A stretch of 64,000 nucleotides of DNA from a virus (Duplodnaviria > Caudoviricetes), in IMG/VR virus record IMGVR_UViG_2974703250_000001, positions 1 through 64,000 of that record. One strand, written 5' to 3'. Position numbers and translations under genes: made by a program. Numbering within the stretch: position 1 is the stretch's first letter; each line of letters begins with the position of its first letter. Positions 37,265 through 64,000 of this stretch are shown here, piece after piece. The notes under the pieces were generated by a model. It did no database searches, was not told the origin of the DNA, and saw nothing but the letters and a program-made list of their open reading frames with translations.

Positions 37265-38224
37265 TTGAACCGTAAGAAGATCGCGGCGTTGGTGTTGGCG
37301 GCTGCGGCCACCCTGCCGATTGTCGCGTGTTCGACTTCGGTCCCGGCTGGCATTACCGCCGTCAAGGTGGACGACTACGCGTTCGTCCCCACTGACCCGA
37401 CCGTGGAGGGCTGCATTAAGCCTGAGACGAATGAGTTCAACCCAATTGGCGGGTTCAAGGCGTACATGTACCCGGCCCGGCAGATCAGCTACGACGCGCT
37501 GGACCAGCAGGGCGCGGAGGCTCCGGCCACCGTCGTCGTGTCGAACCGCGAGGCTCCGGCTGAGCTTAAGGTGCCGGTGACGGTCACGTTCGACCTCACG
37601 CAGGATTGCGAGCTGCTTAAGCAGTTCCATCGGGACTTCGGCACGAAGTACCAGGGCTGGCTTAACGATGACGGCACGGTGTCTCAGGGCTGGAAAGACC
37701 TGCTGAACTACGTGGTCGGCCAGCCGTTGCAGAACACGTTGGTGTCGATCGCGCAGAAGTACGAGTGGCGCAAGATTTGGAACGACGAGGCCGTGCGCGT
37801 CGAGTTCCAGAACGCGCTGCGTGAGACGCTGCCTAAGGTGTCGCGGGACCGTACTAACGGTGTCGACTACTTCACCAACTTTCAGGTGACGGTGATGAAG
37901 CCGGACCCGGTAGACGCGACTCTCAAGCAGGCGATCATTGCGGAGCAGCAGGCCATCGCTCAGGCTAACGCCACTAAGGCGAAGGGTGTTGCCGATGCAG
38001 AGGCGGCGCAGGCGAAGGCTGACGCGGACGTTAAGGCTGCGGAGGCTCAGACCAAGGTGGCTGAGCAGGAGGCGCTTAAGCGTCAGGCTGAGGTGCGCGG
38101 TTATCCGAGCATTGAGGCTTACCTTGACGCGCAGGAAATCGCCGCCAAGCGTGAGGCTATCTCGCGGGGTATCAATCCGTACCCGTCGCCCATCGTCGCT
38201 GGCGTTGGTGCCACCGGGCGCTAA
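37265..38224 (+). CDS. SPFH/band-7-like lipoprotein
   Basis: Signal peptide with lipobox IVAC; VPVTVTFDL SPFH core; C-terminal AQAKADA coiled coil. Confidence 0.72.
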   Translation: MNRKKIAALVLAAAATLPIVACSTSVPAGITAVKVDDYAFVPTDPTVEGCIKPETNEFNPIGGFKAYMYPARQISYDALDQQGAEAPATVVVSNREAPAELKVPVTVTFDLTQDCELLKQFHRDFGTKYQGWLNDDGTVSQGWKDLLNYVVGQPLQNTLVSIAQKYEWRKIWNDEAVRVEFQNALRETLPKVSRDRTNGVDYFTNFQVTVMKPDPVDATLKQAIIAEQQAIAQANATKAKGVADAEAAQAKADADVKAAEAQTKVAEQEALKRQAEVRGYPSIEAYLDAQEIAAKREAISRGINPYPSPIVAGVGATGR

Positions 38225-38403
38225 TGCTTAGCCGCATCACGCCGGGTGACATTCGCTTTCTGGCCGTGTGCGTCACCGTGATAGCGGTGTGCGTTATCGG
38301 CCTGGCGATCTTCGCCTAACTAACTCTCCCTAGATGGGGCGCGCATATCTAGGGGTGATTAGCGCACGCGCACCCTAAACCCTCTTTAGTAAAGGAAATA
38401 CCC

Positions 38404-38832
38404 ATGTCGAAAAAGAGCCTGTTCAAGCAACCAGGTGTCGAGCAACTGATTCCCGGCCACGAGCTGCCGGTAGGCGTCAAGGTGACCGGGCGAAACATGC
38501 ACGCGGTTACCCTGCTGGTCTCAGTGTCCGGGGAGGCGAACGGTAGTCGCTCTACCGCTACCGCCTTCTTTGAGAGCGACGGTTCGCTGTCGCACGTCAA
38601 GCTGGCCGACAACACCGGCAACGTTGACGTTAAGGCCGGTGAGTACCTGATCCTTAGCGACGACCTCAAGACCGTGGTAGTTGCGTCGGCTGAGGACTAC
38701 GAGTTCTTCAAGACCCTGTTCCCGCTGCTGAGCGCGGTGGGTGACGCGTTCGACTCGCTGGCCGCGAGCTTGGCGAGTAGCGATGTGGACTTGGCCGGTC
38801 TGCTCGGGGGCCTGCTGGTTGGGGACTTGTGA
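38404..38832 (+). CDS. Hypothetical protein
   Basis: AAGGA RBS; phage-like codon usage. Confidence 0.55.
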   Translation: MSKKSLFKQPGVEQLIPGHELPVGVKVTGRNMHAVTLLVSVSGEANGSRSTATAFFESDGSLSHVKLADNTGNVDVKAGEYLILSDDLKTVVVASAEDYEFFKTLFPLLSAVGDAFDSLAASLASSDVDLAGLLGGLLVGDL

Positions 38833-39068
38833 TGAGTCTCTTCAAAAAGAGCGCGCCCGTCTTCGCTCCTAAGTCCGTCGCGTCTATTACGGCGGGGCTG
38901 AGCGACACTCTCGCGGAGCTTGAGGCTCACGCCGAGGACCAGACCTCGCAGGCCGCTTTCCAGAAAGCGATGGCCGACCAGGCGTTGACCGCTGCCGCTG
39001 AGCACGCGGCAGAGTCCGAGTTGGCGCTAAAGGTCGCGGGGAATGTTAGGGCGCTGCTCGGCGCGTGA
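38829..39068 (+). CDS. Hypothetical helical protein
   Basis: GTGA overlap; Ala-rich coiled coil. Confidence 0.5.
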   Translation: MMSLFKKSAPVFAPKSVASITAGLSDTLAELEAHAEDQTSQAAFQKAMADQALTAAAEHAAESELALKVAGNVRALLGA

Positions 39069-39181
39069 TCAATTACGTATGGCGGCACCTGTCCGCGCTC
39101 TACTACTTCGGTAGGGAGCGCGGCAGGTTGCCCACCCTTAAAGAGCTACGCGATGACACTAAGACTTAAGAGGCTGAACGC

Positions 39182-39406
39182 ATGAGCGTTAAGAAGCGCA
39201 CACCCGAACAAGGGCGCATCGTGATCACACTCGAATACACGATGCCCCGTACGTACTGGTCTGAGTACGCCGACGACGGAAAGCGAATCATTACGGATGC
39301 TGTCGATTGCCTTCGGCAGAACGTCCAAGACTGGAAAGACGGTGCTCTTTCCCTAGGAGACCTAATTCAAGGTGCCGACGAAATCCACGTCGAAGCCACT
39401 AAGTAA
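39182..39406 (+). CDS. Hypothetical protein directly upstream of Ro
   Basis: GAGG RBS; 74 aa. Confidence 0.55.
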   Translation: MSVKKRTPEQGRIVITLEYTMPRTYWSEYADDGKRIITDAVDCLRQNVQDWKDGALSLGDLIQGADEIHVEATK

Positions 39407-39420
39407 AGAGAGGGTAAGCA

Positions 39421-40839
39421 ATGGCTACCTTTTTGCAGAGCTTGCAGTCCCAGTTCAACACCACTCGCACGGAGAACGGCGATAAGGCGCACAAGTCGTC
39501 GCTTGATCCGGTGGTGGATTACTTCGGCCTAGCGGGCGCTATGCGTGACCGCGCCGAGGCGTCGGCTGACCTGTTCGAGAAGGCGTTCCGATTCGACCCA
39601 CAGGCGGCGGTCCGGACCCTGTTCTATCTGCGTGACGTGCGCGGGGGCCAGGGCGAGCGTGACGTGTTCCGTGCGGGCCTCAAGCGGCTTCTGGCGAAGT
39701 GGCCGGGCGCTGACTACTCGGTGCTCAAGCATGTGCCGTTCTACGGGCGCTGGGACGACCTGTTCTACGACGGCGCGAACGTCACGCCCGCCGTGGCCCG
39801 GATTCTCCACTATCAGTGGGCCTCCGACGTTGCGGCGTACGAGCGTGGCGATCAGGTGTCGCTCATGGCTAAGTGGCTGCCGTCCGACAAGGCCGCTAAC
39901 AAGGAGCTGGCTATCGCGGTGCGTCAGGCGCTCGGTCTGACTCAGCGTGAGTACCGGCAGACCCTTACGGCTCTTAGGGGCCGGATTGGTCTCGTCGAGC
40001 ACGATATGTCGGAGCGCACTTACGAGCACATCGACTACTCGCGGCTCCCGGCTCAGGCGCACCGTAAGCACGTTAAGGCGTTCCGGCGCAACGACGGTGA
40101 GCGGTACCAGGCGTTCCTTGACGCGGTGCAGCGTGGCGAGGCGAAGGTGAACACGTCGACCCTGTATCCGTACGAACTGTTCGACCTGTGCCGGTCGGAC
40201 CCTTCGGCGGCTGACGCGTTGTGGAAGAACCTGCCGGACTACACGCAGCCGGGCCAGGATGCGCTAGTCCTGCCGGACGTTTCCGGTTCGATGGCGGGGC
40301 GTCCTATCTCGGTGTCGGTGTCGCTGGCGCTGTACTTCGCTGAGCGCAACACGGGTCCGTACAAGGGCTATTTCCTGTCGTTCGACACCACGCCCAAGCT
40401 GGTTCAGGTGCCGGAGTCGGGAGACTTGCAGAGCAAGTTACGGGCGATCAGTAGCCATACCAACAACTGGGGTTCGACCAACTTGCGGGCCGCGTTTACC
40501 GCGATCCTCAGGGCGGGGTTGCAGTCGGGCACCGTCCCGGCCACGCTCTACGTCGTGTCGGACATGCAGTTCGATCAGGCGCTTAACAACGCCGATCTGA
40601 GCGTGTTCGAGTCGGCCAAGCTCTCGTTCCAGCAGGCGGGCCTTGAGCTGCCGCACGTCGTGTTCTGGAACGTGAACGCGCGGCATGATCAGTTGCCCGC
40701 GACGGCTATGGACGGAAACGTGACTCTCGTTTCCGGGCTGGCTGCTACGACGTTTGCGCTGGCTGTGCAGGGTAAGTCCCCGCGTGAGCTGGTGGACGAC
40801 GTAATCAATTCGGAGCGATACGAGAAAATCGTTCTGTAA
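39421..40839 (+). CDS. Ro60/Rsr-like RNA-binding protein (TROVE plus vWA)
   Basis: RTENG, LFYLRDVRGGQGER, YGRWDDL, AKWLPS, DVSGSM MIDAS, VSDMQFD, FWNV. Confidence 0.9.
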   Translation: MATFLQSLQSQFNTTRTENGDKAHKSSLDPVVDYFGLAGAMRDRAEASADLFEKAFRFDPQAAVRTLFYLRDVRGGQGERDVFRAGLKRLLAKWPGADYSVLKHVPFYGRWDDLFYDGANVTPAVARILHYQWASDVAAYERGDQVSLMAKWLPSDKAANKELAIAVRQALGLTQREYRQTLTALRGRIGLVEHDMSERTYEHIDYSRLPAQAHRKHVKAFRRNDGERYQAFLDAVQRGEAKVNTSTLYPYELFDLCRSDPSAADALWKNLPDYTQPGQDALVLPDVSGSMAGRPISVSVSLALYFAERNTGPYKGYFLSFDTTPKLVQVPESGDLQSKLRAISSHTNNWGSTNLRAAFTAILRAGLQSGTVPATLYVVSDMQFDQALNNADLSVFESAKLSFQQAGLELPHVVFWNVNARHDQLPATAMDGNVTLVSGLAATTFALAVQGKSPRELVDDVINSERYEKIVL

Positions 40840-40882
40840 AACTTCCATCTTGCCGGGATGGCTCGGTAAGGTTGGAAACAGG

Positions 40883-40936
40883 TGGACGCGAACAGCAATC
40901 AAAACTTCTTCTGCTAAAAGAAACCAAGTGCGTCCA
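40883..40936 (+). ncRNA. Minimal Y-RNA-like unit 1 carrying a tRNA-Ser(GCT) anticodon stem-loop
   Basis: TGGACGC/GCGTCCA terminal stem, ACAGCAA motif, TTCTT-CTGCTAA-AAGAA hairpin. Confidence 0.7.
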
Positions 40937-40948
40937 GTTTAAAACCTG

Positions 40949-41078
40949 TGGACCCCCACAGCAATAAAACTACTTCCATGATAAGGACGAGGCGCGGGTT
41001 CAAATCCCGCAGCTCTTACGGTTTTCACCGTAAGGGTTTAGCTCAGGGGCAGAGCGCGTAAGTAAAAACAGGGGTCCA
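40949..41078 (+). ncRNA. YrlA-like Y RNA (circularly permuted tRNA mimic)
   Basis: TGGACCCC/GGGGTCCA stem, ACAGCAA, T arm GCGGG-TTCAAAT-CCCGC, loop-closed acceptor 41011-41038, D arm GCTC-AGGGGCA-GAGC; adjacent to the Ro gene. Confidence 0.88.
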
Positions 41079-41092
41079 GTACATAGCGGCTG

Positions 41093-41146
41093 TGGACACT
41101 AACAGCGATTCTAACTCTTTCAAATGGTGAAAATAGAATGTGTCCA
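41093..41146 (+). ncRNA. Minimal Y-RNA-like unit 3
   Basis: TGGACAC/GTGTCCA stem, ACAGCGA motif, inner TTCTA/TAGAA stem. Confidence 0.65.
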
Positions 41147-41161
41147 GTTCCACCGCGTTTG

Positions 41162-41201
41162 ATCCGCCCCGCGCCTAAATGACTGCGGGGCGGATTTTTT
41201 T
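41162..41201 (+). terminator. Intrinsic terminator closing the Ro-Y RNA transcript
   Basis: ATCCGCCCCGCG / TGCGGGGCGGAT stem followed by a T run. Confidence 0.85.
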
Positions 41202-41341
41202 ATGCCTAACGGAGGAAACATGCCAGGACCGATGTCCGCACCTAACGGAAACAAGCTGATCACGGTGAGCGCAGAGGCCCGTAAGAAAGCCGGTCGGACC
41301 GGCAAGACGGAGCTGGTGCGCGAGCGGAAAGGTAACAAGCA

Positions 41342-41689
41342 ATGAAGGCTCTGGTTATCGCGGCTGCGGTCGCGGTTGGCCTGTCTATGTCTGCGTGCGC
41401 TACGCAGGACCAGCACTGGGAGACCGGCTGCAAGGTCACGGATAAGCAAATCCTGACCGACGTGAGCGGGTCCAACGGCAGCACGAGCACTACCCGCACT
41501 AAGCGTCTGAGCACGTCGTGCGGCGCTTTCAACGTCGAGGACGCATGGGAAGCGGGTTCGTTCAACTCGTATGACCTGTGGTCAAAGCTAGAGGTTGGTA
41601 AGACCTACGACCTCAAGGTGGGCGGCATTCGGAACGGGTTCTTTTCGATGTTCCAGACCGTCTTGGAGGTAAAGGAATCGAATGGCTAG
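41342..41689 (+). CDS. Lipoprotein
   Basis: Signal peptide with lipobox MSAC; beta-rich mature part. Confidence 0.65.
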   Translation: MKALVIAAAVAVGLSMSACATQDQHWETGCKVTDKQILTDVSGSNGSTSTTRTKRLSTSCGAFNVEDAWEAGSFNSYDLWSKLEVGKTYDLKVGGIRNGFFSMFQTVLEVKESNG

Positions 41690-42002
41690 CAAGCTGGTCG
41701 CAGAGGCCATCGCCAAGTACCTAGAAGGCAGGGGCGACGCGTCGAACGCGGACCGGTTCTATCCGGTGCCTAACCGGGTGATGCGCCGCGCTATGCGCTT
41801 CGGCGGTTCCCGCCAGTTGATTCCCGGCGCGAACGGTAAGCCTGCCACTTTCTATCAGCCTCAGCGGTCGCGGATTCAGAGGGGTATTTCGCGGCCCGGC
41901 GTGCGCGGCAAGGTGCTTACCGAGGGCCTTACGCCGATCTTCGTTAGTGAGGATGGCGACCGCATGGATATGCGCGAGTTCTACGACAAGGCGGCTGCCT
42001 GA
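41682..42002 (+). CDS. Hypothetical protein
   Basis: Tight operon packing. Confidence 0.55.
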   Translation: MASKLVAEAIAKYLEGRGDASNADRFYPVPNRVMRRAMRFGGSRQLIPGANGKPATFYQPQRSRIQRGISRPGVRGKVLTEGLTPIFVSEDGDRMDMREFYDKAAA

Positions 42003-42187
42003 TGTACATGGTGGATATCCGCCTAGCTACAGGCGAGGTTAAGCACGCGCGCACCAATGAGCTACCGGTGCATGACGATCACAACAACCTGGCTATTGCC
42101 TTGGCGGTTGGCGGCGCTCTTGTCTACGCGGCTGGGCATTACGCCGGATACGCGGTTAGGGAAATTAAGGAGAGCAACGATGGCTAA
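42002..42187 (+). CDS. Hypothetical protein
   Basis: 1-nt overlap with the upstream stop. Confidence 0.45.
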   Translation: MYMVDIRLATGEVKHARTNELPVHDDHNNLAIALAVGGALVYAAGHYAGYAVREIKESNDG

Positions 42188-42377
42188 GCCTGTTGGCACC
42201 GTGCTGCACAAGACATACCCGAACGGAAAGTTTGACGTTGCCGTTCACACCCTAAAGGGCTGGGTGATTGTCGATCAGCACGGCTCTTACAGCATTCCAG
42301 GCGAGCCCGCGACCGCTAACGGCAGTTCATGGATCGAGCTTGAGCCTGCCCCTTTGAAGGTTAGCGGGGCGGCATAA
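42180..42377 (+). CDS. Hypothetical protein
   Basis: GGAGAG RBS before ATG42180. Confidence 0.5.
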   Translation: MAKPVGTVLHKTYPNGKFDVAVHTLKGWVIVDQHGSYSIPGEPATANGSSWIELEPAPLKVSGAA

Positions 42378-43351
42378 CTGACTATCAGGTAAAGCGCGAC
42401 TACTGGGACCGCCCAATCGTGTATCCGGATGGCTACACGGCAGGCGACCCTAACGGCGTATGGCGCGAAGGTAGGGGGCGCGATGGAAAGCAAAAGCGCT
42501 GGTGGTACACCAAAGACGGCAAAGGCTACAGCCGCGCGTCCGGTGCTGGCAAAGGGCTCGACACTAAAGACGGGCTCATTGACTGGGCGGCGTGTCAGGC
42601 AGCCGTTGGAATCCTCTTGGACGCCTCCGCGCGCTCAGAGGTCGCAACGCTTATCAATGAGTACGACGCCGATCCTTGGTACAAAGGCGACGACGGCGGA
42701 ACCCGCTCAGGCAAAGAGCGGCTTAAAGCTGCTGTTGAGAAAGCGCGTAACGTTGCCGGTCAGCACACTGCTGCTTCTGCTGGCACTGAGTTCCATAAGC
42801 TCGGCGAACTTCGCAATAAAGGCGAGAGCCCGCGCATCGTCCAGGACCACCTAAAGGAACCGCTGGCGCAGTATGACCGCGCCGTGGAACCTATCGAGTT
42901 CCTAGAGCAGGAAATGTTAGTGGTCAATGACCATCTGGAACTCTGCGGGTCGGTCGATTACCTAATGGGCTTGCCGCCGGGCATTACCACGCCGGACGGC
43001 GAATACCACGAAGATTCTCTAGTCGTGGTGGGCGACCTTAAGACGGGTCGCTGGGACGCTAAGCGTCCAATGAGCGTGACCTGCCAGTTGACCGCTTACG
43101 GGACTGGCGTCCGCTACGACCAGGAGACGAATACACGTACTCCGCTGCATCCCCGCATTAACAACAAATGGGGCGTCATGGTCCATTTCCCGATTATGAC
43201 TAAGAACCCTAAGGTCCGCTTCTATTGGGTGGATTTGACGCTGGGGTTGAAGGCTTCGCTTCTCGCTAAAGAGGTTGAGGCTATGCGGCGAGTTTTCAGT
43301 TCTAAGGATTCTGAGCTAAAGGAGTTGAACCTTGACCATTACCAGTGGTGA
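42374..43351 (+). CDS. PD-(D/E)XK (RecE/Cas4-like) exonuclease
   Basis: GTEFH, CGSVDYL, GDLKTG, QLTAYG; start probably ATA42374 (otherwise GTG42419). Confidence 0.78.
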   Translation: MTDYQVKRDYWDRPIVYPDGYTAGDPNGVWREGRGRDGKQKRWWYTKDGKGYSRASGAGKGLDTKDGLIDWAACQAAVGILLDASARSEVATLINEYDADPWYKGDDGGTRSGKERLKAAVEKARNVAGQHTAASAGTEFHKLGELRNKGESPRIVQDHLKEPLAQYDRAVEPIEFLEQEMLVVNDHLELCGSVDYLMGLPPGITTPDGEYHEDSLVVVGDLKTGRWDAKRPMSVTCQLTAYGTGVRYDQETNTRTPLHPRINNKWGVMVHFPIMTKNPKVRFYWVDLTLGLKASLLAKEVEAMRRVFSSKDSELKELNLDHYQW

Positions 43352-47033: not shown

Positions 47034-48331
47034 CAGGGGTTGACGAGCACTGGCCTGACGAGGAATCGTACGGCGCACAGCCGCCAAGCGACCTGGGCGC
47101 GGAGCAGTGCGTTATTGGATCGGCCCTTCTGTCAAAGAAGGCCCTTAACACGCTAACGACGCTAATCACGCCAGCCGACTTTTACCGGCCAATCCACGGC
47201 GACATTTTCTCAGCCGCTACAGCCCTAGCGTCAGCCGGTGAGCCGGTCGACGCGATGACGGTTGCCCGCGAGCTTGAGACGCGCGGCCAGCTCAAAAAGA
47301 TCGGCGGGGCACCGTACCTGCTGACCTGTATGGAGAACACGCCGACCGCTACTAACGCTGAGGCGTACGCGCGGATGGTCCTCGACAAGGCGAAGCTCCG
47401 GCGGCTCGACGAGCTGGGCACCCGCCTTAAAGCCCTGGCGTATTCCGAGGCCACGACGAGTGACGACGTTAACGCCCTGATGGGCCAGGGTGAGAAGTTC
47501 TTCCGGTCTCAGCATGAGCCTGACGACACAGCGGTGTCGTTCGACGGCATGGTTGCCTCGTGGGAGGAATGGCAGGCCACCGACGTTGGTTCGATTCAGA
47601 CGCCTTGGGAGGCTCTGAACGCACGTCTGAACGGCGGGCTACAGCGCGGGCGGCTCTACACCATAGCGGCCAGGCCGGGTGTCGGTAAGAGTGTCGCAGC
47701 ATTGCAAATGGCGGCGTTTGCGGCCCACTGGGGTTTCCCGGCGGCGTATTTCACCTTGGAGATGTCCAAGGATGAGGTTACGTCGCGGCTTATCTCTGCC
47801 GGGTCGAACACTGACTTTAGCAAGATCATGCAAAAGCGGCTGGACCTACAAGACCGCGAGAAGATCGACCGGTACCTAAAGGACAGTCGCAATCAGCCTT
47901 TGCAGACTGTCGACCGGTCAAGGGTCACGGTTGAGCAGATCGTGGCGCACTGCCGGTCACTCGGAAAGCTCGACGTGCTCGTGGTCGATTACTTGCAGCT
48001 CATGTCAGCGAGCGACACTAAGGCGTCTCGTGAGCAGCAGGTAGCTCACATGTCGCGTTCGTTGAAGATTGCCGCTAAGGAACTGGACGTAGCGGTTATC
48101 GCGTGTTCGCAGTTGAACCGTGGCCCCGTTAAGGACGGTAAGCCGCGCGCTCCGACGATTGGCGATCTGCGCGAGTCGGGAGCGATTGAACAGGATAGCG
48201 ATGTGGTCCTGTTGCTGCATACCGACGAGGACGATCCAGGGATTATCCAGATGATTATCGGTAAGAACCGAAATGGCCGGATGGGGGACTTGATGTTCAA
48301 CTTTGAGGGCCACTATCAGCGGATCACATGA
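47030..48331 (+). CDS. dnaB: DnaB-like replicative helicase
   Basis: AEQCVIGS N-domain, AARPGVGKS, VVDYLQL, SQLNR, DLRESGAIEQDSD, KNRNG. Confidence 0.95.
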   Translation: MTGVDEHWPDEESYGAQPPSDLGAEQCVIGSALLSKKALNTLTTLITPADFYRPIHGDIFSAATALASAGEPVDAMTVARELETRGQLKKIGGAPYLLTCMENTPTATNAEAYARMVLDKAKLRRLDELGTRLKALAYSEATTSDDVNALMGQGEKFFRSQHEPDDTAVSFDGMVASWEEWQATDVGSIQTPWEALNARLNGGLQRGRLYTIAARPGVGKSVAALQMAAFAAHWGFPAAYFTLEMSKDEVTSRLISAGSNTDFSKIMQKRLDLQDREKIDRYLKDSRNQPLQTVDRSRVTVEQIVAHCRSLGKLDVLVVDYLQLMSASDTKASREQQVAHMSRSLKIAAKELDVAVIACSQLNRGPVKDGKPRAPTIGDLRESGAIEQDSDVVLLLHTDEDDPGIIQMIIGKNRNGRMGDLMFNFEGHYQRIT

Positions 48332-48582
48332 GCGCTGAGATTAAGGCGCTTATGTCGCCTAAGCCCTTGCATTGGACCGAAGAGGCGGTGTGTCACGACG
48401 ACCGGCGCTTTACCGGTCGCTACTCCGATCTAAGCACGGCTGACATTTCCCAGATGATTAGCAAGTGCTCTCGCTGCCCGGTTTACGAGCAGTGCGGAGA
48501 CTGGGCCGTCCGTGAGCAAGTAATTGAAGTATTCGCAGCAGGCTATTGGAGGTCTGATGGACGCGTTACTGAACCGGATTAA
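48328..48582 (+). CDS. WhiB-like protein (divergent)
   Basis: W..EAVC..CSRCPVYEQC..VFAAG. Confidence 0.6.
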   Translation: MSAEIKALMSPKPLHWTEEAVCHDDRRFTGRYSDLSTADISQMISKCSRCPVYEQCGDWAVREQVIEVFAAGYWRSDGRVTEPD

Positions 48583-48805
48583 TCGGCACGGTTGTGCTGG
48601 CTGCGGCCAGTCCGTGTATTTCACCCGTCACGGCGCTTGCGAGCGATGCGAGGGCGGCTACGACGACGAGGAATACCCCCGTGACTGAACCAGACGAGGA
48701 CTACGAGAACCCGGTAGGGGAAGTGCTGGACGACGAGACCGTGGACGAACTTGCTAAGTCGCACCTGGTCTACAGCATTTCCAAGTTCTTAGGGGTGGGG
48801 AACAA

Positions 48806-49666
48806 ATGGCCGTTCATCTGAGGGCTTACAACGAGGAACTGGGCACCGTCCGTGATGTGGCGGTGCCCTTTCAGTTTCCGGGTGGCGAATGGGACTTGAA
48901 GCAGGTCCATGAGTTCGACCAACGGGTGACATGGGTTGCGGACGTTCGCGGTGCTGACCTTAACGACCTAATGGCGGCAGCTCTGCTGTCTAACGTCGCT
49001 GTGCAGCGTGGCGAGGACTTCGTTCTGATGATTCCGTACTTGCCAGCGGCCCGTGCGGACCGGGGCCACCCGACCGGGTGTGTCCCGTACGGCAACTTCA
49101 TCTCGTCAATGGGCGCGTCGGGGATCATTACCGTTGATCCACACTCGCGCCGCATGCCGGACTACCTGGGATTCCAGGCTTCTACCGTCACGGCGCTGGA
49201 CCCACTGCCGCTGCTGGACAGGGCTTTGGAGAGCCAGGGCCACTGGCGGTACGACGCAATCATTGCGCCAGATAAGGGCGCTGTGGATCGCGCTGGGGTC
49301 ATCGCTAAGCATTACGGGCTAGACCTGGTTGTTTGCGACAAGGAACGCGATTTCGACACGGGCAGGATCACCAAGTACAAGGTGCCGATCCTGCCTCGTA
49401 GCGGTAAGTACCTGGTGGTCGATGACATCTGCGACGGAGGCGGGACTTTCGCGCTGCTGGCTAGTGAGGCGCTTATCTCTAAGCCCAACCTAGACCTTTG
49501 GGTTACGCACGGCATTTTCTCCGGTAAAGCAACCATGCTGCCGAGTTACTACGGGCGCATTATGACGAGTGATTCACACCCCGGCCATAACCGGGTCGGT
49601 GTCGCTACGTCGATTGTTCCCACTTTCACCTATATGCACGAAACGATGGTTAAGGGGCTTAAGTGA
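48806..49666 (+). CDS. Ribose-phosphate pyrophosphokinase-like enzyme (Adps-like, NARP1)
   Basis: [42 protein letters not shown]. Confidence 0.85.
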
Positions 49667-50079
49667 GCACGAACTATTCGCCTATCCAGTGGCCGGTGGC
49701 CGAGACGCTGCTAGAGCGGCAGGCGATCTTCATTTATGAGGGTGCCCGGTTGCAGGCGGCAGCCGTTAACGCGCCGATCATTCCTGAGCCGTGGGACAAG
49801 CGCGATGAAGCTTTCAAGACGCAGTTCCTTGGTATCACGCAGAAGATGATGGGTCCGGACCGCTTCACTGATCCGGAAGCCGCCCACGATTCGTGGTGGC
49901 GCGCATACGAAGCCTTGGGGTGGAGCTATGGCCCCGTTCGGGATACGGAAGCTAAGACGCACCCGGACATGGTTCCTTTCGCTGACCTGGGCTGGGAGGA
50001 ACGCATGAAAGACGCGGTGTGGATAGCGCTGTGTGAAATCGCCCGGCAGTGGATCGTGGAGGAAAATCCTTATGAGTAA
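49663..50079 (+). CDS. RyR-domain protein
   Basis: [36 protein letters not shown] matches the RyR repeat consensus. Confidence 0.72.
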
Positions 50080-51556
50080 GTTTGCACCCGTTGCGGCGCT
50101 CTTTCAGACAGACGCGTACAAGCTGGGCCATATCGACCAGTACGCGCTTAGCGGGGAAGTGACCCGCGTCTATTCCAACTGGACTAACCGGAAGTCGCGC
50201 CTGCCCGGCGTGGATAAGGTGGTCCACTTCGGATTGCAGGCGTATATCCAGGCCCACTTGGTGGACGCGTTCGAGCCGTTCTTTAAGACGCTCGACGAGG
50301 ACCAGGTAGCGGAGCTTTACGAGGAACGGGTAGCGCAGATTCTCGGGCCGGACGCGGCTAAGAGTATCGGCAGCGACCACATTCGGAAGCTGCACCGTCT
50401 GGGGTATCTGCCGCTGCGGTTTAACGCGGTGCCGGAGGGTACGGCGGTGCCTATCGGGGTGCCGTCGTTCACGGTGGAGAACACGCACCCGGACTTCTAC
50501 TGGCTGACGAACTACGTGGAGACCGGCCTGAGTGCCGGGGTGTGGCAGGCCAGCACGTCCGCGACCATTGCCCGCGAGTACCGCAAGGTGCTTGACGCGG
50601 CTGCCAAGCGGACTGGCGCTGATCCGGCGGGCGTCGACTGGCAGTGCCACGACTTCTCTTACCGGGGCATGTCGTCGCACGAGTCGGCGGCGTCGTCGGG
50701 GGCCGCGCACCTGTTGAGCTTCACGGGTACGGATTCGCTGGTGGCGCTCGACTGGATTGACCGCTACTACGGCGGCGAGTTCGTCGCGGGCTCGGTCCCG
50801 GCTACGGAGCACTCGGTGATGTGTACCGGCATTGAGACGGTCGGGGAGCTTGAGACGTTCAAGCGGCTGCTGGACCTGTACCCGACCGGCATCGTTAGCG
50901 TCGTCAGCGACACGTTCGACCTTTGGGCCGTGCTGACTCGGTATTTGCCGACGCTCTACGGCCAGATCGTGGGCCGGGACGGCAAGCTGGTTATCCGGCC
51001 CGACTCGGGCGATCCGGAGAAGATCATTTGCGGTGATCCCAACGCGCCCAAGGGTTCTAACGAGTGGTGGGGCGCTCTTAACCTGCTTTACGACACGTTC
51101 GGCGGGGTTAAGAACGACGCGGGCTACATCGAACTGGACTCGCATGTCGGCCTGATCTATGGCGACTCGATCACGTTGGATCGCGCTAAGAGCATCACTG
51201 ATCGCATGGAGAAGCTGGGCTTCGCGTCGTCAAACGTGGTGTTCGGCGTCGGGTCGTTCACGTATCAGCACAACACGCGTGACACGTTCGGGTCCGCGAT
51301 GAAGGCGACGTGGGCCGAGGTCGACGGCAGGGGCTACAACCTGCTCAAGAACCCGGTGACCGACGACGGCACCAAGAAGTCCGCGACCGGGCGTCTGGCA
51401 GTGCTGCGCGACCTGCAAGGGGAGCTGGTGCTTGTCCAGAACGCAGACCAGTACGACGAGTTCGCATCGGAACTGCGTCCGGTTTGGGAGAACGGAAAGT
51501 TCGTCCTGAGGCAGTCATTCGCCGGGGTCAGGGGCACTTTAGCCCAGCAGAGCTAG
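50072..51556 (+). CDS. Nicotinamide phosphoribosyltransferase-like enzyme (Namat-like, NARP1)
   Basis: [57 protein letters not shown]. Confidence 0.9.
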
Positions 51557-51656
51557 ACGGTTAAGTCCGGGTTTCCGGACGTTTTCGTGGGCATTGGGTA
51601 CATGCGACGTACTGTTGTGTGTACCCAACAGCCCGACGAAAGAAAGGGGGTTGAAA

Positions 51657-52595
51657 ATGACTCTGACTCTTACCGCAATGCGCGGTTATCCCGGCTCGGG
51701 GAAGTCGACTACGGCGCGCACTGTTGCTAATAACACGGGCGCGGTGGTGGTTTGTCGTGACGAGCTGCGGAACATGCTGCACGGCGTGTACTTCAACGAT
51801 GGTTCTAACCATCCTAAGTCGCCTAAGGACTTTGAGGATGAGGTAACCATTGCGGAGCGTGCGCAGGTCGCAGCCTTTCTCAAGGCTGGCGTTTCGGTAG
51901 TTGTCGACGCTACGCATTTGGAGCCGTCTTACTTGCGTAAGTGGGCGAAGATGGCCTCAATGTACGGCGCTGACTTCGTGCGGGTCGATCACATCACGCC
52001 GGTTGACGAGTGTCGTAAGCGGGACCACGCCCGGATGCTCGCTGGTGGCCGGTACGTGGGTGACAAGGTTATCGAGAAGATGGCTAAGCGTCACCCGGTG
52101 AAGAACTGGCCGGATATTCAAGCGCCACCGACGTTCACGCCGGAGCCGGTTGAGTGGGAGCCGGGCCTGCCTACGGCAATCATTGTCGATATCGACGGCA
52201 CGGTGGCGCACATGACGGGGCGTTCACCTTACGACTACAGCCAGGTCCATACCGACGTGGTTGATGAGCAGATTCGATGGCTGGTCAACACGGTTGAGTC
52301 CGAAGGCGTGTTCGTCCTGTTCGTGTCGGGCCGGGATGACGAGTGCCGGGAGGCTACTGAGAAGTGGCTTGCGGAAAACGGCATCGTCTACGACGAGCTG
52401 TACATGCGGCCTACCGGCGCTAAGGACAACCACGGGAACAAGCTGCCCGACTACCTGGTGAAGTCCGACCTGTTCGATAAGCATATTCGCGGCAAGTACA
52501 ACGTGCGGTTTGTGCTCGACGACCGGGACCAGGTTGTGAACCTGTGGCGTGCGCTGGGCCTTAAGTGCCTGCAAGTTCAGCCGGGCGACTTCTGA
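51657..52595 (+). CDS. Polynucleotide 5'-kinase/3'-phosphatase (T4 PseT-like)
   Basis: GYPGSGKST P-loop; HAD DIDGT, SGR, DDR. Confidence 0.9.
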   Translation: MTLTLTAMRGYPGSGKSTTARTVANNTGAVVVCRDELRNMLHGVYFNDGSNHPKSPKDFEDEVTIAERAQVAAFLKAGVSVVVDATHLEPSYLRKWAKMASMYGADFVRVDHITPVDECRKRDHARMLAGGRYVGDKVIEKMAKRHPVKNWPDIQAPPTFTPEPVEWEPGLPTAIIVDIDGTVAHMTGRSPYDYSQVHTDVVDEQIRWLVNTVESEGVFVLFVSGRDDECREATEKWLAENGIVYDELYMRPTGAKDNHGNKLPDYLVKSDLFDKHIRGKYNVRFVLDDRDQVVNLWRALGLKCLQVQPGDF

Positions 52596-54172: not shown

Positions 54173-54739
54173 ATGGGACTAGAGCCACGCTGCCGGTCGG
54201 GGAAGAAGTGCGTTTCCCGTACACCTGACGGTCCGGCGATAGTAGCGCTACGCCCGCTCTGCGACGGCTGCGTTAAGGACATTCAAAAGTGCCTTGACGA
54301 CCTGCCGACATACGCGGCCCTGCTTGAGCAGTACAAGGGCTACGTGCCCGGCTCGGTGGGGCAGTCAAAGGTCAGCTCATCGGCTGAACCTAAGTCACCG
54401 CTAAACCTGACGGTCATTGACCTTATCGGCCAGATCGGCGCGGTAATCCATCGCACGCAGGGCTACCAGGTACGTGACCTGATCACGCTAAGCGGCGGCT
54501 TGGAAGTAGCGCTAGATATCCGGTCGGTCTATTCAAAGTCAGACGGGATTATCGGCCTGCAAAGGGTGTGGGAGCGGCGGCGCGTCCCATGCCCGGAATG
54601 CAACTTGCCCACTCTCGGGGGATGGGTAGGCGAAGGCACCATTTACTGCACTAACAGTGAGTGCCGGAATGCGCTTAGCAAGGCGCAGTACGAAGAATAT
54701 TGCGAAATGAAATCAAGGGAGAAGGTTAAGCGTGCCTAA
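54173..54739 (+). CDS. Zinc-finger hypothetical protein
   Basis: C..C, LCDGC, CPEC..C..C motifs. Confidence 0.6.
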   Translation: MGLEPRCRSGKKCVSRTPDGPAIVALRPLCDGCVKDIQKCLDDLPTYAALLEQYKGYVPGSVGQSKVSSSAEPKSPLNLTVIDLIGQIGAVIHRTQGYQVRDLITLSGGLEVALDIRSVYSKSDGIIGLQRVWERRRVPCPECNLPTLGGWVGEGTIYCTNSECRNALSKAQYEEYCEMKSREKVKRA

Positions 54740-55167: not shown

Positions 55168-55389
55168 ATGTCTCACGAAAAAACTTCCGTGGTGCTGCGG
55201 AAGATTGATAAAGCGGCTCGGGTCCGGGGGATGACTTTTGTCCTCCGGCGTCCGGGCGGCAATCACAGCATTTACGACCTCGACGGCCACATGGTGACGA
55301 TTCCTAACGGGTCCAAGGTGACGCGGGTTGAGGCGACTTATCGGCAGTTGCAGGACAAGCTTGGGAGAGGTTGGTGGCGTGACGTTTGA
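55168..55389 (+). CDS. HicA-like RNase-fold protein (no HicB seen)
   Basis: RRPGGNHSIYDLDGHMVTIP pattern. Confidence 0.55.
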   Translation: MSHEKTSVVLRKIDKAARVRGMTFVLRRPGGNHSIYDLDGHMVTIPNGSKVTRVEATYRQLQDKLGRGWWRDV

Positions 55390-55802
55390 CGCGTCGAATC
55401 TTAGTTACCGGTTCCCGCGATTGGGCTGACCGGAATCATGTTTTCTTAACGCTGTCTATCCATATGGTCGGGGTGGATTCGGCAGTGATCGTTCACGGGG
55501 ATTGCCCTACGGGTGCTGATCTGTTCGCGGACGACTTTGGTACGCGCCACCCGCGTTGCACGGTGGAACCGTACCCGGCTGATTGGTTCAAGGCTTGCAC
55601 TGACAAGTGCTATCACAAGCCGCGCCTTAAGGATGGAAAGCCGTATTGCCCGGTTCAGGGCTTTATCCGTAATCAGAAGATGGTTGACCTGGGCGCGGAC
55701 GTTTGTCTGGCATTCCCGCTTGGTAAGTCGCCGGGCACTCGTGACTGTATGCGCCGCGCTAAGAAGGCGGGCATTCACGTAATCAACTGTGGAGACGAAT
55801 AG
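55386..55802 (+). CDS. SLOG-family protein (DUF2493/cpYpsA-like)
   Basis: ILVTGSRDW, VHGDCPTGAD, RNQKMVD, PGTRDC. Confidence 0.75.
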   Translation: MTRRILVTGSRDWADRNHVFLTLSIHMVGVDSAVIVHGDCPTGADLFADDFGTRHPRCTVEPYPADWFKACTDKCYHKPRLKDGKPYCPVQGFIRNQKMVDLGADVCLAFPLGKSPGTRDCMRRAKKAGIHVINCGDE

Positions 55803-55891
55803 ATGAAGAAGTTTCTTAAGAGCATTGACCGCCGGAAAGTGCTCAAGGTCATTGACCGGATTCTGTGGGGTGTGGAAGGGCGGTGGGTTAA

Positions 55892-57169
55892 GTGAGCTTT
55901 GATACGCCGGAGAACGTTAACTACGCGGCGACAATCGTCAAGCTGCCGCAGGGCCTTCTCCTAGAAGGTCTCGACAACCTGGTGGGCGTGCCCATGTTCG
56001 GCTACCAGGCGCTCACCCAAAAAGAAGGCTACGAGCTGGGCGCTCTGCGGGTGCTGTTCATGGCCGAAACGCAGCTCGACGCGGACTACGCGCGGGAGAA
56101 CAACCTGTTCCGCGAGGCCACGTTGAACCGGGACGCCAGCGAGACCGGCTACCTAGAGCCGAACGCCCGTGTGAAGGCGATCCGGCTGCGCAAGCACCAG
56201 TCAGACGCACTGCTGATGCCGTTGTCGTCGCTGGCCTACACCGGCTACGACGTGTCCACGCTCAAGCCGGGCGACACGTTCGACAAGCTGAACGGCCACA
56301 CGATCTGCCGCAAGTACATCCCGAAGGGTAAGAAGCAGGCCACGCAGGGCCAGCCCAAGGTGCGTAAGCAGGTCGACGAGCGTCTGTTCCCGAAGCATCT
56401 GGACACGGAGCACTTCTTCCGGAACCTGCACTACTTCCGTACGGAGCGGCGCGTTGTGGTGACGCAGAAGCTCCACGGCACGAGCTGGCGGGGCGGCAAT
56501 ATCCCAGTTAACCGGACTAAGGGCTGGTTTGAGCGGTTCATTAACTGGCTGGGCTGGTTCACCCATGACACCGAGTACAAGCACGTCTACGGCTCTCGGA
56601 ACGTCGTTAAGGGCCGCTCGGAGAATAACCACTACTACGCGTCTGATCTGTGGGCCGAGTACGGAAAGAAGCTTGAGGGGAAGATTCCCGAGAACTTCAT
56701 CATTTACGGCGAGCTGATCGGATGGGTTGATAACGACACCCCGATTCAGAAGGGCTACACGTACAACCTGCCTCCGGGCCAGTGTGAGCTTTACGTGTAC
56801 CGGGTGGCGACGGTTAACAACCAGGGTGTGATTGCGGACCTGTCGTGGGAGGGCGTTAAGGACTTCTGCGCGAGCTTGGACCTTAAGACGGTGCCGGAGT
56901 TTTACCTGGGCGTCGATCATTACCCGTTCGCGGACAATGACGATGCCGTTGTCAAGATTGCCTCTGAGGCGTACCTGGACAAGCGGTATGCCGACGAGGG
57001 GTTCCCGAACGCGGTTCCGCTGAGTGACCGCAAGACGGTTGACGAGGGTGTCTGCGTCCGTGTTGAGGGCCAGATTCCGCACGTCTTTAAGGCGAAGTCT
57101 CCGAAGTTCCTTGAGCACGAGACTAAGCAGTTTGATAAGGGAGAGGTTGACCTTGAAGCGGTGGCATAA
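55892..57169 (+). CDS. ATP-dependent RNA ligase (Rnl2/DRB0094-like)
   Basis: Motif I TQKLHG, YGELIG, DEGVCVR, KAKS; N-terminal OB-like module. Confidence 0.85.
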   Translation: MSFDTPENVNYAATIVKLPQGLLLEGLDNLVGVPMFGYQALTQKEGYELGALRVLFMAETQLDADYARENNLFREATLNRDASETGYLEPNARVKAIRLRKHQSDALLMPLSSLAYTGYDVSTLKPGDTFDKLNGHTICRKYIPKGKKQATQGQPKVRKQVDERLFPKHLDTEHFFRNLHYFRTERRVVVTQKLHGTSWRGGNIPVNRTKGWFERFINWLGWFTHDTEYKHVYGSRNVVKGRSENNHYYASDLWAEYGKKLEGKIPENFIIYGELIGWVDNDTPIQKGYTYNLPPGQCELYVYRVATVNNQGVIADLSWEGVKDFCASLDLKTVPEFYLGVDHYPFADNDDAVVKIASEAYLDKRYADEGFPNAVPLSDRKTVDEGVCVRVEGQIPHVFKAKSPKFLEHETKQFDKGEVDLEAVA

Positions 57170-63803: not shown

Positions 63804-63876
63804 GCCACCTTAGCTCAGTTGGTAGAGCAGCCCCTTCGTAACGGGCAGGTCAGCGGTTCGACTCCGCTAGGTGGCT
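63804..63876 (+). tRNA. tRNA-Thr(CGT)
   Basis: Full cloverleaf GCCACCT/AGGTGGC, D arm GCTC/GAGC, loop TT-CGT-AA, T arm AGCGG-TTCGACT-CCGCT; CCA not encoded. Confidence 0.93.
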
Positions 63877-64000
63877 CGTGAGTGATAGATACCAGGCGAC
63901 GGTTGGTCGCATAGTGCATTACCAGTCGTACGGCACGCCTAACGGCGAGTATTTACCCGAACCGCGCGCAGCCATTGTGACGACGGTGGGGCACGATGGA

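Follow-up and report, generated by a model that had tools for sequence, protein, structure and literature searches.

A predicted Ro60-like DUF2828/DUF7788 protein and an adjacent array of three handle RNAs in a virus related to Cluster L mycobacteriophages

Introduction

Ro60 and its Y RNAs form a classic and still poorly understood RNA surveillance particle. Described Ro60/Rsr systems with Y RNAs include the YrlA and YrlB RNAs of bacteria and mycobacteriophages and Yrn1/Yrn2 of D. radiodurans (PMC4201824), and the Thermus phage phiLo carries a Ro60 together with Yrl1/Yrl2 (PMC12135203). In YrlA the Ro60 site is marked by GNCGAAN0-1G, which belongs to the closing helix and lies on its 5′ strand (PMC4201824). 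Here we describe a locus of comparable outline in a 64,000-nucleotide stretch of viral DNA, referred to as the window, which comprises bases 1-64000 of the complete 77.6-kb virus record IMGVR_UViG_2974703250_000001. A gene for a protein with a predicted Ro60-like fold is followed by three small RNA units on the same strand, which share a terminal handle and differ in the cargo that it encloses. A Ro-type ring gene followed by a Y-RNA-like array, with a constant handle and differing cargo, had been proposed for this locus in a first-pass annotation, and this was right in outline. An array as such is not new, since a Ro protein normally has several Y RNAs, and these are processed from a common precursor (Chen et al. 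2014, PMC4201824). The present analysis places the protein, by sequence, outside the Ro60/TROVE family and the RNA handle outside YrlA.

Small RNAs with paired ends are also found in amoebae, and the Class I RNAs of Dictyostelium were reportedly described by Aspegren in 2004. They are about 60 nt long, occur in many copies and have a 6-bp terminal stem joining their 5′ and 3′ ends (PMC7919456). The pattern used in searching for them reads GTTGRCCTTACAGCAA...GTCAACTG (PMC5054030), and they have been reported as unique to dictyostelids (Kjellin et al. 2021, PMC7919456).

Results

The region is 88-89% identical in DNA sequence to the Mycobacterium phages Chaser, Bromden and Douge and 78% to Faith1-like phages, relatives that belong to Cluster L (Lclasvirinae), are temperate and infect M. 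smegmatis. The array begins 42 nt past the stop codon of the Ro-like gene, a member of the DUF2828 family, and unit 2 begins 110 nt past it, all on the same strand. The common handle of the three co-oriented units reads GUGGAC-N3-4-ACAGC(A/G)A...GUCCAGU (40883-40936, 40949-41078 and 41093-41146). The pattern GTGGAC-N2-5-ACAGCRA occurs three times in the window, each time on the + strand (at 40882, 40948 and 41092), against 0.02 copies expected from shuffles, and none of 100 shuffles gave three; no fourth copy was found anywhere in the 77.6-kb phage. Each unit folds with both ends paired (UGGACGC/GCGUCCA in unit 1, UGGACCCC/GGGGUCCA in unit 2 and UGGACAC/GUGUCCA in unit 3), giving a closing helix of 7-8 bp; on the 5′ strand the helix gives way to 2-3 nt and then to ACAGC(A/G)A, which is invariant. 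Both the three units and their compensatory terminal stems had been reported in the first-pass annotation; the sequence reads as described there, and the folds confirm the stems.

The two short units (both, like all features described here, on the + strand) are built alike. Unit 1 (40881-40940) consists of the 5′ arm UGGACGC (40883-40889), ACAGCAA (40892-40898) and the 3′ arm GCGUCCA (40930-40936), followed by GU, and its cargo is the hairpin UUCUU-CUGCUAA-AAGAA with the 7-nt loop CUGCUAA. Unit 3 (41091-41149) has the 5′ arm UGGACAC (41093-41099), ACAGCGA (41102-41108) and the 3′ arm GUGUCCA (41140-41146), then GUU, around the hairpin UUUCA-AAUGG-UGAAA. In our reading the hairpins of units 1 and 3 are anticodon-loop-like and D-arm-like, respectively, and cargo types resembling them recur in distant phages.

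Unit 2 (40946-41081) is the long member of the array. Its handle (5′ arm UGGACCCC at 40949-40956, ACAGCAA at 40958-40964, 3′ arm GGGGUCCA at 41071-41078) encloses, in order, an anticodon-arm-like hairpin UCC-AUGAUAA-GGA (40975-40987), GAGG, a T arm (40994-41010), a closed acceptor-like stem of 12 bp with a tetraloop (41011-41038) and a D arm (41041-41055), and the fold has an energy of -49.1 kcal/mol (z -4.1). This arrangement is that of a permuted tRNA mimic: relative to a tRNA, the chain is open between the D arm and the anticodon arm, and the acceptor end is closed. Pairing holds in 99.3% of cells across 20 actinophage copies of unit 2, and 11 of the 23 pairs vary on both sides, with such changes in six of seven acceptor-like pairs and three of five T-arm pairs. 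The description of the payloads as tRNA-derived is demonstrably apt for unit 2 only; units 1 and 3 carry small hairpins. ARAGORN detected no tRNA in the array.

An alignment of the window with four other Cluster L genera (six Cluster L genomes in total) bears on two points that the first-pass annotation had left to comparison with related phages. All three units and the terminator that follows them are present throughout with the handle letters invariant, the units being conserved in every Cluster L subcluster, and the cargo varies between Cluster L subclusters. Changes within the helices are compensatory: in unit 1, GGAC/GUCC becomes GAGC/GCUC in UPIE and a G-C pair becomes A-U in Samty, and in unit 3 an A-U pair becomes U-A in Zakai and UPIE, with a further change of AC/GU to GG/CC among relatives. 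In the public records of Zakai (L003:3034-3104) and Samty (L005:3083-3277) the tRNA-like part of unit 2 is annotated as a tRNA-Thr and units 2-3 as a hypothetical coding sequence, both probably miscalls of the handle RNAs.

The gene upstream of the array (39421-40839) encodes a 472-aa product that matches the Pfam families DUF2828 and DUF7788 at 103.3 bits (cut-off 29) and 99.6 bits (cut-off 27.1), respectively, and PHROG 850 at 2.1e-153 over residues 1-468. No match to TROVE (PF05731) was obtained even at E<=10, where only DUF2828, DUF7788 and weak vWA families appeared, and a phmmer search of the PDB returned chance hits alone and no Ro60. The AlphaFold model, based on 29 homologues (mean predicted local distance difference test score 82.6), predicts a ring that is built of helical repeats and is closed by a vWA domain at the C terminus. 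Every one of the top twelve Foldseek matches of this model is a Ro60 structure (Xenopus, human, Deinococcus or Thermus phage phiLo), and sequence identity to Ro60 structures is 10-17%. Residues D286-x-S288-x-S290, T353 and D381 are invariant among the 29 homologues and were assigned by pattern to a MIDAS (metal ion-dependent adhesion site) with a DxSxS motif. Orthologues in related phages carry the SEA-PHAGES annotation 'Ro-like RNA binding protein'. The term Ro-like is right for the predicted fold, and this part of the earlier call of a Ro60 gene stands; by sequence the protein is no member of the Ro60/TROVE family. The DUF2828 family is large, with over 6,500 proteins in the database at E<=1e-5, and tblastn detected the protein in 708 records of cultivated phages, among them those from Escherichia, Salmonella, Listeria, Staphylococcus, Vibrio, Campylobacter and Bacillus. 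The protein atlas returned DUF2828 clusters only and no taxonomic lead toward amoebae.

The design of the array is shared by phages far removed from Cluster L. Units consisting of a closing helix, 1-3 nt and (A)CAGCAA lie on the strand of the DUF2828 gene in a Salmonella phage of the Felix O1-like group, in a Listeria Pecentumvirus and in Bacillus phage Tsamsa, and in Felix O1-like, Bacillus and Listeria phages they are often found inside tRNA gene arrays or beside RtcB. A set of 88 DUF2828 loci, of which 80 were fetched at 37-91% protein identity, was searched for stems of 7 bp or more that are followed by 1-5 nt and CAGCRA and completed by a 3′ arm. This gave 289 units on the gene strand versus 54 on the opposite strand and 38-51 in shuffled sequence; 86 of the 88 loci had at least one unit and 64 had at least three, the units directly adjoining the gene. 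In 40 short units from non-actinobacterial phages the closing helix was 95% paired, seven of its eight pairs varied on both sides, and the helix covariation score was 0.659, versus 0.166 for shuffled and 0.04-0.14 for slid alignments.

Two covariance models were built, R1 from these 40 short units and R2 from 14 long units, with no actinobacteriophage sequence in either; compensatory changes affect 17 of the 23 pairs in the R2 training units. When applied to both strands of the window, R1 found units 1 (36.8 bits, E 9.4e-6, full length) and 3 (33.6 bits, E 5.1e-5) exactly and nothing else at E<=10. R2 recovered unit 2 at full length (70.9 bits, E 4.2e-12) and matched the handle part of unit 3 at 28.1 bits. 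Between them, the two models thus pick out the three units and no other site in the window. Among the 88 loci (598 kb) R1 gave 127 hits at E<=0.01, every one of them on the gene strand. A reading of the units as DNA repeats or protein operators was rejected on this strand distribution and on sequence changes that keep pairing, G-U pairs included. In five jumbo phage records (1.08 Mb) nine of 14 R1 hits fell within the 7.4-kb DUF2828 loci; distant hits lie at 201529-207960 in record G002 (of L068) and at 90104-90546 in record G005 (of L061). R1 gave no hit in one jumbo phage with units that have a 1-nt spacer (the UCAGCAAU subtype), and the model therefore does not span the whole family. Rfam at the gathering threshold identified only tRNAs in 20 related loci.

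All of the features that define this family are found in the three window units, namely a helix of at least 7 bp, 1-3 nt, (A)CAGCRA, a model match, and adjacency to and co-orientation with a DUF2828 gene. No paper or Rfam family describing the handle RNAs was found, and they are an uncatalogued family defined by the closing helix and ACAGCAA.

Members of the family vary in what they enclose and in how they have been annotated. In two metagenomic phages (L040:5803-5924 and L041:4566-4683) the handle UAGGCAC-UC-ACAGCAA...GUGCCUAGU surrounds a whole unpermuted tRNA body, scoring 60-67 bits with the Rfam tRNA model; at an identical position ARAGORN assigns it to His(AUG) in one phage and to Gln(UUG) in the second, and each of these phages also has a normal tRNA-His(GUG) and tRNA-Gln(UUG). 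In L081 (4589-4708 and 4883-4994), as in L059, L065, L076 and L085, 112-120-nt 'tRNA' matches have normal acceptor, D and T arms and an anticodon-arm region replaced by an insert of ~45 nt with (A)ACAGCAA, which makes them unpermuted counterparts of unit 2. The unit array of Listeria phage WIL-1 is overlaid by a row of annotated 'genes' of 22-40 codons.

The units of the window are not canonical YrlA RNAs. The Rfam YrlA model (RF02553) gave 20.1 bits for unit 2 versus a gathering score of 69, in a local match to model positions 30-81 that covers the T and D arms only. At the gathering threshold Rfam reported in the whole window only the tRNA-Thr at 63804, and at E<=10 it gave nothing meaningful in 40700-41300 apart from the weak YrlA match and likewise weak tmRNA and Tymo-tRNA-like matches to the T arm. 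No GNCGAA motif is present on either strand in 40840-41201. Unit 2 does keep the YrlA module order of T arm, stem and D arm, near a Ro-like gene and co-oriented with it. The presumed YrlA identity could accordingly not be upheld, and the handle is instead a helix with ACAGCAA.

The array is flanked by two hairpins, both picked out in the first-pass annotation and both real. The hairpin after the stop codon (40843-40877; -19.8 kcal/mol, z -5.3) has no U tract. Five relatives have equivalents of -14 to -22 kcal/mol, in which position is kept and sequence is not, and covariation could not be shown; the hairpin may be an mRNA 3′ end, a processing site or a leaky terminator. The array ends in a strong intrinsic-terminator-like hairpin (41161-41203; -27.9 kcal/mol, z -5.1) with a 13-bp G+C-rich stem, a 10-nt loop and UUUUUUU, which is kept in all six aligned Cluster L genomes and was overlooked by a simple terminator scanner because of the length of its loop. 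A promoter scan detected no sigma-70-like site in 38000-42500. Together with the 8-10-nt spacers and the single terminator, this is consistent with a single transcript that would carry the gene and the three units. Co-transcription of a Ro gene and Y RNAs has a precedent in YrlA/YrlB of M. smegmatis (PMC4201824).

A 47-codon open reading frame (PHROG 4670, 41202-41345) starts at the final bases of the terminator U tract, with GGAGGAAAC before its ATG, and the next transcription unit thus starts directly after the array. The tRNA-Thr(CGU) gene (63804-63877, 61 bits) is the start of the phage tRNA cluster, ~22 kb from the Ro-like locus; in the relative Chaser this cluster comprises 13 tRNAs. The rightward operon of Chaser that includes the Ro-like gene also encodes a polynucleotide kinase (Pnk) and an RNA ligase (50764-51702, 55179-56459), 10-15 kb from that gene, and two NAD-salvage enzymes and a HicA-like toxin (48320-50663, 54300-54518). 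The LeBron orthologue of the Ro-like protein (gp53), the RNA ligase and the kinase are each toxic on overexpression (PMC13148394).

Discussion

The reading that we favour, with a probability of roughly 0.75, is that the Ro60-shaped DUF2828/DUF7788 ring protein and the three handle RNAs form a Y-RNA-like particle, the RNAs being co-transcribed with the gene, processed and bound by their handles. What the analysis demonstrates is the predicted fold, the existence of the RNA family with its covariation, and the linkage of these RNAs to the DUF2828 protein family. Early in infection a joint transcript of the gene and the RNAs, ending at the terminator (41203), would be made and would be cut apart in the 8-10-nt spacers between the units. 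The ring protein would then bind each RNA through its handle, as Ro60 binds Y RNAs, and the particle would display the cargo, in unit 2 a complete circularly permuted tRNA mimic and in units 1 and 3 single hairpins. The likely use would be in RNA surveillance or repair, or in a contest between phage and host over tRNA, roles suggested by the Pnk, RNA ligase and 13 tRNAs of Chaser, by the toxicity of overexpression in LeBron and by the placement of such units within tRNA arrays or beside RtcB in other phages.

Several points weigh against this reading. Expression, RNA processing and protein binding are inferred, and the function is argued only from neighbouring genes and by analogy. Part of the transcription could end at the stable hairpin that separates unit 1 from the stop codon, and the promoter scan of 38000-42500 detected no separate promoter for the RNAs. 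It must be noted that the unit scan required a stem, so that the high pairing of the units is partly by construction; the strand bias, the shuffles and the independent model hits are the cleaner evidence. Finally, five of the 14 R1 hits in jumbo phages lie far from a DUF2828 gene, which indicates that the RNAs need not always act with it.

This last observation also speaks for an explanation in which the RNAs are real and act without the Ro-like protein. Their handle would then be a processing or stability signal, or a site for a host RNase, an RNA ligase, Pnk or a tRNA enzyme; as free decoys made of tRNA parts, the units would be linked to DUF2828 genes through shared islands of tRNA and RNA-repair genes. 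The frequent interspersion of units with tRNA genes and the enclosure of whole tRNA bodies by some of them fit such a view. In Cluster L, however, the array adjoins the DUF2828 gene although the tRNA cluster lies ~22 kb away, and adjacency and co-orientation hold in 86 of 88 loci that span 37-91% protein identity, and we regard this explanation as rather improbable. Slightly less credence is given to an ordinary Ro60 (Rsr/TROVE) system with YrlA/YrlB that has diverged in the phage, an unlikely origin in our judgement, even though the predicted fold is that of Ro60, the relatives are annotated as Ro-like RNA binding proteins, unit 2 follows the YrlA order of T arm, stem and D arm, and multiple Ro-adjacent Y RNAs from one precursor are already known. 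Divergence of this kind would have to account for the lack of a TROVE match at E<=10 and of a sequence match in the PDB, for a YrlA score of 20.1 bits against a cut-off of 69 with no GNCGAA in 40840-41201, and for a different handle that is conserved and common to hundreds of DUF2828 phages. In addition, Chen et al. surveyed only genomes with an annotated TROVE protein (PMC4201824), and DUF2828 phages were therefore outside their survey.

The constant handle and variable cargo, which differs between Cluster L subclusters, had also led to the suggestion of a programmable ribonucleoprotein, in which the cargo would be a guide pairing with target RNAs and the handle would anchor it to the protein. 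The cargo is instead folded, as conserved hairpins or as a tRNA-like body with covarying stems, and is not an open spacer, and the same cargo types recur across distant phages. Complementarity to target RNAs was not found, although no search aimed at it was made. We consider a programmable system in the guide-RNA sense unsupported and very unlikely, and the particle of ring protein and handle RNAs remains the reading that we carry forward.

The locus points to a system parallel to Ro60 and Y RNA that employs another protein family and another RNA handle. Its carriers include well-studied phages, such as the Felix O1-like, Listeria, Staphylococcus and Vibrio phages, in which the RNAs are unannotated or miscalled as small open reading frames or tRNAs. 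The copy in the window is among the simplest, with one gene, three RNAs, one terminator and no surrounding tRNA genes, and it belongs to a temperate group of phages on M. smegmatis for which genome engineering is routine. Given this simplicity, the tractable phage group and the known toxicity in LeBron, binding, processing and phenotype are directly testable. In addition, the resemblance to Class I RNAs, considered below, supplies a concrete hypothesis on the dictyostelid RNAs, a question that has stood open for 20 years.

As in the Ro60/Rsr systems with Y RNAs, a ring of helical repeats with a vWA domain and MIDAS, here predicted, is encoded beside at least two small RNAs on the same strand. 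The ends of these RNAs form a closing helix with a conserved motif on the 5′ strand, and one RNA carries a tRNA mimic made up of T arm, stem and D arm. Unlike Ro60/Rsr, the protein of the locus is DUF2828/DUF7788, with 10-17% identity to Ro60 structures and no TROVE hit. The handle, a helix with ACAGCAA, differs from the bulged helix with GNCGAA of YrlA, the RNAs score below the Rfam threshold, and unit 2, in contrast to YrlA, also has an anticodon-arm-like hairpin. The DUF2828 protein with its handle RNAs is probably a Ro/Y-RNA particle of a second kind, in which both the protein family and the RNA handle are different. The locus is also similar to the Salmonella rsr-yrlBA-rtcBA operon, which carries two Y-like RNAs on the same transcript as the Ro-type gene, in that a Ro-type protein, Y-like RNAs and an RNA ligase share a genetic unit or genome. 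In contrast to that operon, RtcR control is absent here, the protein and the RNAs come from other families, and in Chaser a distance of 10-15 kb separates the Ro-like gene from the RNA ligase and Pnk.

The likeness to the Class I RNAs lies in the handle. In both, GAC ends the 5′ arm and GUC opens the 3′ arm, and a motif ending in ACAGCAA is followed by a variable remainder; a comparison of the window handle GUGGAC-NNN-ACAGCAA...GUCCAGU with the published Class I pattern, the only form in which the two were compared, shows agreement in stem ends, ACAGCAA and conserved positions. The 11-nt motif of the Class I RNAs, CCUUACAGCAA, agrees with the window handle only in its last 7 nt, the first 4 nt being different. 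Unlike the window units, Class I RNAs are eukaryotic genes with their own Dictyostelium upstream sequence element (DUSE) promoter, and their known protein partner is an RRM protein, with no published link to DUF2828. One may nonetheless speculate, tentatively and as a possibility that we hold to be doubtful, that DUF2828 proteins and RNAs with a helix and ACAGCAA represent a second ancient lineage of Ro/Y-type ribonucleoproteins in phages, bacteria and eukaryotes. The Class I RNAs would be its eukaryotic members, and the phage particle would display tRNA parts or whole tRNA bodies for tRNA protection or repair, or as a decoy for host anticodon nucleases.

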